IMG/VR virus record: IMGVR_UViG_2872164251_000008
Source: a virus
Lineage: Duplodnaviria > Heunggongvirae > Uroviricota > Caudoviricetes
Direction: 5' to 3' (one strand)
Length of the DNA: 16,911 nucleotides
Part shown: positions 2,553 to 4,991 of the stretch, in pieces
How the letters are laid out: each line of letters begins with the position of its first letter
Numbering within the stretch: position 1 is the stretch's first letter
The notes under the pieces: generated by a model
The model's database searches: none
What the model saw: the letters and a program-made list of their open reading frames with translations, nothing else
Told to the model about the DNA's origin: nothing
Made by a program: the position numbers and the translations under genes

Positions 2553-2626
2553 TTACACCCCGCTAAATTCTTCCAGTTTCTGGCGGTGGCTGTCGCTTAT
2601 ATCAAAAGCAAAATCCTCATGCTCTG
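2553..2626 (-). pseudogene. displaced 3' end of terL (last 21 codons plus stop) separated from the gene body by IS1
   Basis: Removing IS1 and one target duplication restores an in-frame continuation of TerL (...FQAEH-EDFAFDISDSHRQKLEEFSGV-stop). Confidence 0.8.
2618..2626. repeat. IS1 target-site duplication, left copy (CATGCTCTG)
   Basis: The 9 bp immediately flanking the IS1 end are identical to 3395-3403. Confidence 0.9.
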
Positions 2627-2641
2627 GGTAATGACTCCAAC

Positions 2642-3145
2642 TTACTGATAGTGTTTTATGTTCAGATAATGCCCGATGACCTTGTCATGCAGCTCCACCG
2701 ATTTTGAGAACGACAGTGACTTCCGTCCCAGCCTTGCCAGATGTTGTCTCAGATTCAGATTATGTCGCTCAATGCGCTGAGTGTAACGCTTGCTGATAAC
2801 GTGCAGCTTTCCCTTCAGGCGTGATTCATACAGCGGACAGCCATCCGTCATCCATACCACGACCTCAAAGGCCGACAGCAGGCTCAGAAGACGCTCCAGT
2901 GTGGCCAGAGTGCGTTCACCGAAGACGTGCGCCACAACCGTCCTCCGTATCCTGTCATACGCGTAAAACAGCCAGCGCTGACGTGATTTAGCACCGACGT
3001 AGCCCCAATGTTCGTCCATTTCAGCGCAGACAATCACATCACTGCCCGGTTGTATGCGCGAGGTTACCGACTGCGGCCTGAGTTTTTTAAGTGACGTAAA
3101 ACCGTGTTGAGGCCAACGCCCATAATGCGTGCACTGGCGCGACAT
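2642..3145 (-). CDS. insB: IS1 transposase InsB frame (expressed as an InsAB' fusion by -1 frameshifting)
   Basis: ORF track 2642..3145. Translation recognised as IS1 InsB (…[38 protein letters not shown]…HYLNIKHYQ). Confidence 0.88.
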
Positions 3146-3339
3146 CCGACGCCATTCATGGCCATATCAATGATTTTCTGGTGCGTACCGGGCTGAGAGG
3201 CGGTGTAAGTGAACTGTAGTTGCCATGTTTTACGGCAATGAGAGCAGAGATAGCGCTGATGTCCGGCAGTGCTTTTGCCGTTACGCACCACGCCTTCAGT
3301 AGCGGAGCAGGAAGGACATCTGATGGAAATGGAAGCCAC
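3064..3339 (-). CDS. insA: IS1 InsA (transposition inhibitor / N-terminal part of transposase), 91 aa
   Basis: ORF track 3064..3339. Translation [42 protein letters not shown]… is the characteristic IS1 InsA. Confidence 0.92.
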
Positions 3340-3389
3340 GCAAGCACCTTAAAATCACCATCATACACTAAATCAGTAAGTTGGCAGCA

Positions 3390-4991
3390 TTACCCATGCT
3401 CTGCCTGGAATGTACCAAACGCCATCAGCGCCGCCACGCTCGGGTCTATCTTGTTCGGTGATTTTTTCTTGTTCGGCTTGATATTGGCGTTCGCGTCACT
3501 CTGCATCACGACGTTACTCATCGACCAGGACAACACCGGATCGCCACGATGCACAATCACCCTGCGGTTAACAAAAACTTCGAACGATTTCGCCGCCGGA
3601 CTGAATCTGAGGTAGGTTTGCGGGAACGGCTCCACCTCAAAACCAGCCCCCTGTAATTGCGTCCTGAGATGCGTGGCGTTCCACGTATCAAAGCCCACCA
3701 GCCTGATATTAAATTTCTCCGCATCCTGCATGATGTCATCTCTGATCCGGTCGTAATCAATGCAGTCACCTGGCGTTGTGCGTATCCAGCCCGCTTTAGC
3801 CCACTGGCGATAGACAGCGCGGTTTTTATTGGCGGGGTTCTGTAGCTGGAACTCCGGCAGATAATGACGGGAAATCAGCATAATGGTTTTACCGACCGGA
3901 AAGGCATAGCATACGCTGGAAATATCGCTGGTTGATGATAAGTCCAGCCCCGCGTAACACTCCTGACCGTGTAAATCTTCCTCCGTGAACGTTCCGGCAC
4001 ACTCAGCCCATGCACCATTACCCATCCACGGGGTAGTCCCCTGACACCAGATATTAAATCGCTTTGTCATCATCTCCACCCACTGCGACGGAATACCCCG
4101 CGCTTTCTGGATGGTTGAGGCCAGTTTTTCACGATCCACGGAAACATCAATATTAGGGTTCGCCTTTATCCACATCGCCGGATCATCAACCTCGTTTTTG
4201 TCGTCCAGTTCGTAAATCAGTACAAAAATTGAATCGTTGACCTCTTCGCCGTCCAGGATCTGGCAGCAATAATCATAGTGCTGTTTACAGGCTGAAACGA
4301 CGTTACTGCCCGATGTGGTAATGGCAAATAACAGCCCTTCGGGACGTGCGCCCATCCCCAGCTCAAGCGCGGAATAAACGCCGTTATCGGGGTGTAGGTG
4401 GTATTCGTCCACGATGGAAAGACTGGGGTTTGTCCCCTCGATGGTTGCCGCTTTTGCTGCCAGCGGCTTTAACAGGCTGTTGCTTTTCGGGTGTATCACC
4501 TTATGCGCCTGAATATTCACCCGCCTGCGTAACGGTCGGGATAAAAGGCACATCTGACGCGCATCATCAAACACGATCCGCGCCTGGTCACGGCTCACCG
4601 CTGCGGTGTAGATATCCTGCTGACCGTTCTCCATAATCAGAAACCAGTTAGCCAGAATCGCGGCGGTCGTGGATTTCGCATTTTTGCGCGGCACTTCGAT
4701 AAAGGCGCTCGTGTATTTGCGCCGTCCGGTGGCCTTAACCTTAAAGCCGAGGATGCACGCAAAGGCGAACTGCTGCCACGGCTCCAGCTCAATGGGTCTG
4801 CCACGCATCGGTCCTTTTACGTGCGGGCACACCCTGGAAAAGGCAATAAACCGCTCCACAACCTCACGATCGAACATGTAAAGGGGGCTTTTAAGGTCCG
4901 AAAAGTACCGTTTAACAGCCTGTTTTAACCGTTTACAGGCCGGAATTTTGCCCGTTTTTACGTCTTCTGCGTACTTATTCCAGGCGGTCAA
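3390..4991 (-). CDS. phage terminase large subunit (TerL); 3' end interrupted by IS1 (present frame ends …QAEH-G-stop using IS1 sequence; inferred intact length about 553 aa)
   Basis: ORF track 3390..4991 (533 aa). Terminase-like ATPase and nuclease regions. Stop codon lies inside the IS1 inverted repeat. Start overlaps terS by 17 nt. Confidence 0.9.
   Translation of the reverse strand: MTAWNKYAEDVKTGKIPACKRLKQAVKRYFSDLKSPLYMFDREVVERFIAFSRVCPHVKGPMRGRPIELEPWQQFAFACILGFKVKATGRRKYTSAFIEVPRKNAKSTTAAILANWFLIMENGQQDIYTAAVSRDQARIVFDDARQMCLLSRPLRRRVNIQAHKVIHPKSNSLLKPLAAKAATIEGTNPSLSIVDEYHLHPDNGVYSALELGMGARPEGLLFAITTSGSNVVSACKQHYDYCCQILDGEEVNDSIFVLIYELDDKNEVDDPAMWIKANPNIDVSVDREKLASTIQKARGIPSQWVEMMTKRFNIWCQGTTPWMGNGAWAECAGTFTEEDLHGQECYAGLDLSSTSDISSVCYAFPVGKTIMLISRHYLPEFQLQNPANKNRAVYRQWAKAGWIRTTPGDCIDYDRIRDDIMQDAEKFNIRLVGFDTWNATHLRTQLQGAGFEVEPFPQTYLRFSPAAKSFEVFVNRRVIVHRGDPVLSWSMSNVVMQSDANANIKPNKKKSPNKIDPSVAALMAFGTFQAEHG
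3395..3403. repeat. IS1 target-site duplication, right copy (CATGCTCTG)
   Basis: Identical to 2618-2626. Confidence 0.9.

Follow-up and report, generated by a model that had tools for sequence, protein, structure and literature searches.

An IS1 insertion at the 3' end of the large terminase gene of a capsid-forming phage satellite in Shigella flexneri

A 16,911-nt stretch of DNA recorded in IMG/VR as a tailed-phage genome (IMGVR_UViG_2872164251_000008; hereafter the window) carries a packaging operon whose large terminase gene, terL, runs into a copy of IS1 just before its expected end. This arrangement raises the question of what the insertion has done to the element that hosts it, both to its packaging motor and to the gene that follows. 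Sequence comparison showed the window to be 100% identical to Shigella flexneri strain SFL1520. An origin in E. coli was considered and rejected: the IS1 junction is absent from all 5,426 complete E. coli genomes, in which no island matches at more than 95%.

The element is a capsid-forming PICI (cf-PICI) of the EcCIEDL933 type that adjoins phoQ and lies between phoQ and roxA. It runs from about position 1491 past the end of the window at 16911, which makes it at least 15.4 kb long counting IS1. Elements of this class measure roughly 10-18 kb and carry an integrase together with regulation and replication modules (bioRxiv 10.1101/2025.02.11.637232), and the island has this size and these genes: int (15682-16911), a D5_N/DUF5906 primase (11367-13115), both full length, and an AlpA-domain ORF, probably the 62-aa ORF at 15089-15277 that corresponds to the AlpA-domain gene called in a second S. 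flexneri genome (GCA_001649295.1). The packaging module lies on the minus strand and consists of capsid (8513-9670), protease (7901-8473), portal (6688-7899), head closure (6353-6733), connector (6060-6356), HNH (5620-6060), a 60-aa ORF (5454-5636), terS (4975-5331) and terL, the named genes being recognized by Pfam and PHROGs. All packaging genes of a cf-PICI are thus found, in the canonical proteobacterial order and with TerL truncated. Except for terL, every ORF of the module (4975 to 9670) is full length and matches in length those annotated in two E. coli islands. No tail module or lysis genes were found with Pfam or PHROGs between phoQ and int, nor are any annotated in the E. coli counterparts. 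Scanning the window for Rfam families and tRNAs gave no matches.

The same order of genes (int, regulation/replication, capsid, protease, portal, head closure, connector, HNH, terS, terL and a 93-aa gene) is shared with EcCIEDL933, the cf-PICI prototype, which one protein annotation source calls 'prophage CP-933C' and which likewise lacks tail and lysis genes. The packaging region of the window island is 97-98% identical to E. coli islands, whereas the regulation/replication region is more divergent, at 80-91%. The two islands also differ in their site, as the window island adjoins phoQ and the O157:H7 locus examined has its island in tqsA, and in terL, which is interrupted by IS1 in the window island only. 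Helper-dependent induction and transfer in small capsids have been demonstrated experimentally for EcCIEDL933 only (bioRxiv 10.1101/2022.09.08.507074).

The inserted element is a complete IS1 of 768 bp (2627-3394, minus strand) whose transposase genes are co-oriented with the terL operon. Its left, insA-proximal inverted repeat (3372-3394, minus strand; GGTAATGCTGCCAACTTACTGAT) and its right, insB-distal repeat, which faces the 93-aa gene (2627-2649, minus strand; GGTAATGACTCCAACTTACTGAT on the plus strand), match at 20 of 23 terminal bases, in keeping with the length of about 768 bp and the imperfect repeats of about 23 bp starting GGTAATG that define the IS1 family. The 91-aa insA (3064-3339, minus strand, GTG start) matched Pfam Zn_ribbon_InsA (5.9e-20) and HTH_Tnp_IS1 (4.9e-30), and the 167-aa insB frame (2642-3145, minus strand), which overlaps insA and is expressed as InsAB' via -1 frameshifting, matched DDE_Tnp_IS1 (5.6e-72); PF03811, PF12759 and PF03400 were thus all present, and the A6C frameshift motif (AAAAAAC) is intact at window positions 3082-3088 (IS1 position 307). 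Since both ORFs and both ends are intact, this copy is potentially active. It shares 100% identity with an IS1 of the S. flexneri plasmid NZ_CP026800.1 and 99.7-99.9% with many Shigella copies. The element itself is no different from the resident IS1 of S. flexneri; its insertion site alone is specific. The SFL1520 genome holds 152 IS1 ORFs among 355 IS elements (PMC6424224), and 42-59% of IS sites in Shigella are IS1, with IS insertions driving pseudogene formation (PMC7373316).

As the preliminary description had reported, IS1 is flanked by identical 9-bp copies of CATGCTCTG, one at 2618-2626 adjoining the orphaned 3' end of terL and the other at 3395-3403 within the truncated gene; the probability of random 9-bp identity at these fixed positions is about 4e-6. 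Both repeats, and relatives with an empty site holding one copy, show that IS1 moved by simple transposition into the 3' end of the satellite's terL, duplicating 9 bp of the target. The truncated terL (3390-4991, minus strand) encodes 533 aa ending in ...FQAEHG, and its last codon and stop are indeed IS1-derived: at the junction codons CAT GGG TAA, the IS1 end GGTAA supplies two bases (GG) of the last Gly codon and the whole TAA stop. Deleting IS1 and one repeat in silico restored a frame of 553 aa ending ...FQAEH-EDFAFDISDSHRQKLEEFSGV, with its stop at 2553-2555. The earlier count of 21 codons gained on rejoining is correct as the number of native residues lost, but the net shortening is 20, as one Gly is gained. 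These 21 codons (EDFAFDISDSHRQKLEEFSGV) and the stop now lie orphaned at 2553-2618 on the minus strand and are contiguous with terL in the two IS1-free S. flexneri sequences described below. The Pfam matches of an HK97-type TerL are both retained, with TerL_ATPase (PF03354, 1.3e-25) at residues 71-242 and TerL_nuclease (PF20441, 8e-51) at residues 252-530 (model positions 4-284 of 286). What is missing is the native C-terminus: proteins of the clade measure 551-558 aa, and here a Gly replaces the last 21 native residues, a loss confined to the final 4% of TerL.

Comparison with islands without IS1, which had been proposed as a check, bore out this reconstruction. The natural IS1-free contig ERR6005009_10 is identical to the reconstructed sequence over 12,539 nt (0 mismatches, 0 gaps), and S. 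flexneri GCA_001649295.1 has the same empty site; in both, the flanks are joined with a single CATGCTCTG. Of the 5,426 E. coli genomes mentioned above, 356 hold the empty site and none has IS1 at the terL site. An assembly artefact or an IS1-mediated rearrangement was considered and rejected: both junctions are found in a hybrid-assembled complete genome and in several independent drafts, which shows that the insertion is not an artefact, and in relatives lacking IS1 the two flanks meet seamlessly. The insertion extends beyond the strain of the window. The exact truncated TerL occurs on 134 contigs, named Shigella flexneri, in 149 collection blocks, and 23 of the 24 contigs read for the 93-aa gene carry IS1 or end inside it. 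The preliminary description had called the event recent on the strength of the perfect duplication; a perfect 9-bp repeat alone is weak evidence for this, but recency holds on a molecular clock, as the IS1-free contig shows 0 differences over 12.5 kb and the IS1 is identical to another S. flexneri copy. SFL1520-type strains (with IS1) and ERR6005009 (without it) form a near-isogenic public pair, differing only once in about 19 kb around the locus.

Does the lost tail matter? The truncation would carry no functional meaning if homologous TerL proteins ended naturally at QAEH, and none of 52 aligned full-length relatives (67-98% identity, 551-558 aa) does so; all 52 carry the tail. No TerL ending naturally at QAEH was found among the 120 homologues listed, in which shorter entries were labelled partial or left unexamined. 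The 52 sequences share the length of the tail and its pattern EHEDFAFxLSxxxKQRLxxFxGI, with L547 and G552 invariant and F550 at least 90% conserved. The full 553-aa TerL also occurs in records of satellite size (10.7-16.5 kb) that are catalogued as phages; the description of one of these is of an induced prophage. In an AlphaFold model of moderate confidence (mean pLDDT 71.6, tail 56-76), the cut falls directly behind the last core helix (516-531), and the lost part comprises a coil (532-540) and a helix (541-549); the Pfam nuclease model stops at residue 530, and the tail lies beyond the nuclease core.

In T3, lambda, SPP1 and P22, removing C-terminal residues of TerL blocks portal binding (review, PMC13595956). 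The tails concerned (T3 gp19, lambda gpA, SPP1 G2P and P22 gp2) are short charged and hydrophobic segments behind the nuclease domain, and EDFAFDISDSHRQKLEEFSGV is similar to them in character and position, although sequence similarity is undetectable. The TerL family profile matches HK97 TerL (6Z6D, 1.1e-52), the solved structure aligning only to family position 532, and a tail-portal contact is not described in the HK97 structural papers examined for one. Because the tail cannot be aligned in true phages (at most 35% identity), a docking role is extrapolated over a large distance. We infer that the lost segment is a flexible linker followed by a short amphipathic helix, conserved in this TerL clade, that would dock the motor on the portal. 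In EcCIEDL933, all packaging-module mutants but that of gene 1792 lost transfer completely (bioRxiv 10.1101/2022.09.08.507074). Given a conserved tail beyond the nuclease core, in the place used for portal docking by other terminases, and given the loss of transfer in cf-PICI terL mutants, packaging failure is the most likely reading, as had been suggested from the locus itself.

The insertion also separates terL from the 93-aa gene (2258-2539, minus strand), the last gene of the packaging-side string, which follows terL in both E. coli islands. In the restored arrangement 13 nt, as first described, with GAGG at 2548-2551, separate the terL stop from the ATG at 2539; in the window the gene lies 777 bp further from terL and begins 87 nt downstream of the IS1 end. 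Its product matched an unknown-function family in PHROGs (phrog_1561, 9.9e-54) and had no match in Pfam, NCBIfam or PADLOC. IS1 insertions exert Rho-dependent polarity on downstream genes, as established by classical genetics.

Together, these data lead us to favor an explanation that we regard as likely in its entirety: IS1 disables packaging through loss of the TerL tail and exerts polarity on the 93-aa gene. The resident S. flexneri IS1 transposed once into terL codon 533 with the usual 9-bp duplication, leaving a protein that retains the ATPase and nuclease domains and lacks the last 21 residues. Excision, replication and the assembly of small capsids would probably still be possible; with the portal-docking tail lost, the island probably makes small capsids but cannot fill them, and with its capsids unfilled it would be immobilized. 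The 93-aa gene, translationally adjacent to terL before the event, would now sit behind a 768-bp IS1 whose insB part is presumably largely untranslated, and its expression from the operon promoter would be expected to fall through Rho-dependent polarity. The event is one of many IS1 hits that degrade Shigella genomes; it has spread clonally in S. flexneri, which does not require it to be adaptive.

A possible, if somewhat doubtful, alternative is that the insertion was inconsequential, having struck an island that lack of a compatible helper or relaxed selection had already rendered inert in S. flexneri. Indeed, the IS1-free island of GCA_001649295.1 carries independent lesions, a nonsense mutation at capsid codon 276 and the loss of about 90 nt covering the 5' end of terS and sequence upstream, which shows relaxed selection on the island within S. 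flexneri, and the prophage regions of SFL1520 have been described as mostly cryptic (PMC6424224). However, the other packaging ORFs of the window have the lengths of those in the E. coli islands, int and the primase are full length, and the IS1-free twin ERR6005009_10 carries the same intact gene set, which makes IS1 the only visible lesion in this lineage.

We consider it unlikely that the truncation is tolerated, with a dispensable 21-residue tail, a packaging-competent island and an effect of IS1 on the downstream gene only. In its favor, the protein keeps both Pfam domains whole, with the nuclease match running to model position 284 of 286, the cut falls behind the last core helix, alignment with the solved HK97 TerL ends at family position 532, and the truncated allele persists in many isolates. 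Against this stand the conservation of tail length and pattern in 52 of 52 full-length relatives and the abolition of portal binding by C-terminal deletions in four other phage systems (PMC13595956). Persistence in clonal Shigella is uninformative on function, since the fixation of IS pseudogenes is routine in these bacteria (PMC7373316).

It is far less probable that IS1 was kept as an adaptive change, either because an IS1 promoter now drives the 93-aa gene uncoupled from late-operon control or because a locked island benefits the host. Prentki et al. are said to have found in 1986 that IS1 ends form hybrid promoters, and the preliminary description had proposed that the 93-aa gene may now be read from a promoter inside IS1 or a hybrid one. 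Within S. flexneri the allele is widespread, IS1 reads towards the gene, and one promoter-like site lies on the gene-facing strand within IS1 (2787 to 2759, 9/12) and another, that of insA, at 3387 to 3360 in the left inverted repeat. However, this proposal found no support in the sequence: promoter-like sites are no more common than in shuffles (6 versus 4.4 +/- 2.4), and no -35/-10 pair of at least 9/12, hybrid or outward, spans the IS1 end. Moreover, the 93-aa product lacks both a known function and a defense-system match, and clonal spread in Shigella requires no selection (PMC7373316). Just as improbable is a natural separation-of-function allele, in which only a portal-docking (perhaps portal-specificity) tail has been removed and the locked-in satellite is retained via interference with helper-type phages or upkeep of the 93-aa gene; if this were true, induction of the immobilized island would still produce small capsids together with a terminase that cuts DNA.

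The insertion is real but ordinary IS-driven gene decay of the kind typical of Shigella, in which a gene is interrupted by an IS and fixed in a clonal lineage (PMC7373316), except that here the target is the packaging motor of a satellite rather than a metabolic or surface gene. As one more IS1-made pseudogene in genomes with about 150 IS1 copies each, and with both IS1 and cf-PICIs already described, it carries little scientific weight in itself. For annotation, the 533-aa 'terminase' deserves a flag as disrupted. The pair formed by SFL1520-type strains and ERR6005009 could be used to ask whether the C-terminal tail of a cf-PICI terminase is needed in packaging, and the insertion accounts for the probable immobility of the satellite throughout a large lineage of S. 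flexneri.

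The element interrupting terL is a complete IS1 within a perfect 9-bp target duplication, as the preliminary description had it, and both features are seen directly in the sequence. The insertion is 768 bp long (2627-3394); 20 of 23 terminal positions agree between GGTAATGCTGCCAACTTACTGAT and GGTAATGACTCCAACTTACTGAT, its two ends, and two identical copies of the target repeat CATGCTCTG flank it at 2618-2626 and 3395-3403. On the minus strand it carries an intact insA (3064-3339; Zn_ribbon_InsA and HTH_Tnp_IS1), an intact insB frame (2642-3145; DDE_Tnp_IS1) and an intact A6C frameshift motif (3082-3088). 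It is a standard IS1, and a copy on an S. flexneri plasmid is 100% identical to it. The large terminase ORF (3390-4991, minus strand) encodes TerL_ATPase (residues 71-242) and TerL_nuclease (residues 252-530) domains, the nuclease match spanning model positions 4-284 of 286, and now ends in ...FQAEHG*, the Gly codon and TAA stop both coming from the IS1 terminus GGTAA. Deleting IS1 and one repeat in silico extended the frame to ...FQAEH-EDFAFDISDSHRQKLEEFSGV*, with the stop at 2553-2555, followed by a 13-nt spacer containing GAGG and the ATG of the 93-aa ORF (2258-2539, minus strand). Joining the flanks therefore restores the arrangement first proposed, but the size arithmetic needed correction: TerL has lost 21 native residues and gained one Gly, leaving it 20 residues shorter (533 vs 553 aa).

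The minus-strand genes before terL encode, in order, a major capsid protein, prohead protease, portal, head closure protein, head-tail connector, HNH endonuclease, a 60-aa ORF and a P27-family TerS. Beyond these, still upstream, come a D5_N/DUF5906 primase, a 62-aa ORF that is probably the counterpart of an AlpA-domain gene called in a related S. flexneri island (L007, GCA_001649295.1), and, at the end of the window, a tyrosine integrase; phoQ stands at the window start. The island contains no tail or lysis genes. This gene set and order are those of proteobacterial phage-inducible chromosomal islands of the capsid-forming kind (cf-PICIs), with EcCIEDL933 as prototype (bioRxiv 10.1101/2022.09.08.507074; criteria in 10.1101/2025.02.11.637232), and the island is a standard member of this class. 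Annotated E. coli counterparts lie inside tqsA in O157:H7 PV15-279 and between phoQ and roxA in strain 2014C-3097, each with a 553-aa terL product and a 282-nt hypothetical gene directly after it. The stretch of about 800 nt from the phoQ stop to the 93-aa gene (1462-2257) lacks a long ORF. Because 1491-1742 is shared with the tqsA-integrated island at 91% identity (1743-2068 is not shared), island DNA appears to start about 30 nt past phoQ. No complete E. coli genome matched the whole island above about 95%; Shigella flexneri 3b SFL1520 (CP032513.1) was 100% identical to the window over 14,991 nt. The IS elements of that genome total 355, of which 152 are IS1 ORFs; its prophage regions are mostly cryptic (PMC6424224).

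Uninterrupted sites were searched for with a 200-nt reconstruction (coverage cut-off 80%) and were present in 356 of 5,426 complete E. coli genomes (241 records at at least 99% identity), annotated as 'terminase large subunit' and 'hypothetical protein'; the IS1 junction was absent from all 5,426. In L007 the island occupies the same site by phoQ, is 99.2-99.7% identical, and has only one CATGCTCTG and an intact 553-aa TerL. The predicted restored TerL was matched exactly by a public protein, carried on contig ERR6005009_10. This contig equals the window minus IS1 and one repeat, with no mismatches or gaps over 12,539 nt, and its only difference from SFL1520 in about 19 kb round the locus is a single base. 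The truncated TerL occurs on 134 contigs that bear the name S. flexneri (e.g., strain K-1770), in 149 collection blocks. Among the 24 contigs covered for the 93-aa protein, which were checked through representatives of their groups, 23 had IS1 here or grouped with contigs starting inside the IS1 end, and one was the empty site. Given the exact empty-site match and the 134 contigs, the insertion is, judged by substitution count, young yet clonally widespread. The earlier wording 'recent' holds in the first respect and needs the second as a caveat; ERR6005009_10, the sole exact empty-site contig, could either come from a strain of the ancestral type or have reverted by precise excision.

Nearly all TerL homologues among the matches listed (Enterobacterales and Pasteurellaceae, 67-98% identity) had 551-558 aa and covered 100% of the query. 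When 26 and 52 of these were aligned, the tail showed the pattern EHEDFAFxLSxxxKQRLxxFxGI, in which L547 and G552 were invariant and F550 was at least 90% conserved. Homologues ending naturally at QAEH were sought in these sets and no full-length one was found, so the reading of a functional truncation survives. Phage-filed records with full-length TerL (69-81% identical) included vB_KppS-Ant (LR881103.1, 16.5 kb; an induced prophage according to its description) and two Pasteurella phages, Pmp7 (OR544138.1, 10.7 kb) and Pmp8 (OR544139.1, 15.3 kb), which, being of cf-PICI size, look like satellites deposited as phages. In or adjoining the 90% clusters of TerL were also three proteins of 798-846 aa: P0089 with TerL and portal Pfam domains, P0020 named portal protein, and P0025. 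This points to fused or miscalled genes in some of the E. coli islands. The family profile matched HK97 TerL (6Z6D) at E = 1.1e-52, the match reaching family position 532. An AlphaFold2 model of P0017, a close relative, is only moderately reliable (mean pLDDT 71.6). In it the cut comes just past the final helix of the core (516-531), and the lost tail forms a coil (532-540) and then a short helix (541-549). From this position in the model, the catalytic domains should fold, and the missing part would be an appendage.

In the terminases of T3, lambda, SPP1 and P22, deleting C-terminal residues blocks portal binding, and segments of this type have a charged and hydrophobic character (PMC13595956), which the lost tail fits; a tail contact of this kind is not described in the HK97 structural literature examined. 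In EcCIEDL933, individual mutations in packaging-module genes abolish transfer completely, except for gene 1792, where transfer is only reduced; replication goes on as before, and proteins of the helper phage itself do not substitute. Taken together, tail conservation, modelled position, deletion precedents and the EcCIEDL933 mutants point to an island that would be unable to load DNA into its capsids, the most likely consequence and one we regard as probable. The suggestion that the satellite may be packaging-defective thus stands as the leading, inferred reading. Another reading, compatible with a loading failure, is that the island had no future in S. flexneri even before IS1 arrived, and that the insertion may have been neutral. 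It draws some support from the IS1-free L007, which has decayed independently, with a premature stop in the capsid gene and 90 nt missing from the 5' end of terS; in the window lineage, however, the other packaging ORFs, int and the primase ORF are all full length and IS1 is the sole visible lesion. The L007 stop, at capsid codon 276, comes from a C-to-T change (equivalent to window 8843) and splits the capsid call into 275 + 109 aa; the missing stretch of about 90 nt (equivalent to window 5312-5401) also takes in the upstream intergenic region, a likely cos region, and a 340-nt segment (9952-10291 equivalent) is absent as well. In different lineages, the satellite's decay seems to be taking different courses. 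That the truncation is tolerated and TerL still works is unlikely.

The 93-aa protein belongs to PHROG 1561, a family of unknown function, and had no match in Pfam, NCBIfam or PADLOC. In the uninterrupted layout its gene is likely co-transcribed with terL, since it lies 13 nt behind and has its own Shine-Dalgarno sequence; in the interrupted layout 87 nt separate it from the IS1 end. IS1 and the operon share one orientation, and a read-through transcript would include an insB stretch of about 500 nt with essentially no translation. Classical genetics has shown IS1 insertions to be strongly polar via Rho, so lower expression of the 93-aa gene is expected. An IS1-internal or hybrid promoter for this gene, as initially proposed, found no sequence support: promoter-like sites across 1400-5500 were no commoner than in shuffles (6 vs 4.4 +/- 2.4), only two of them lay on the relevant strand, the insA promoter-like site in the left inverted repeat and a 9/12 match inside insB, and no -35/-10 pair of at least 9/12 spanned the IS1 end. 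Adaptive rewiring by IS1 is likewise unsupported and highly improbable. Across window 1-5311, 28 of the 38 differences from L007 fall in the 93-aa gene (2287-2521), which is about 88% identical in surroundings above 99.6%; this patch looks like allele replacement or recombination in an accessory gene.

The original observation is thus confirmed and its interpretation largely reasonable, with qualifications on 'recent' and on the promoter. No published description of this terL insertion was found in the literature searched. IS1 makes up 42-59% of IS sites in Shigella, 19 of 20 conserved S. flexneri pseudogenes are IS-interrupted, and IS1 expansion with IS-made pseudogenes fixed in clonal lineages is well documented (PMC7373316); the insertion adds no new kind of biology. 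As a by-product, it provides a natural near-isogenic pair useful for testing the conserved TerL tail in cf-PICI packaging.
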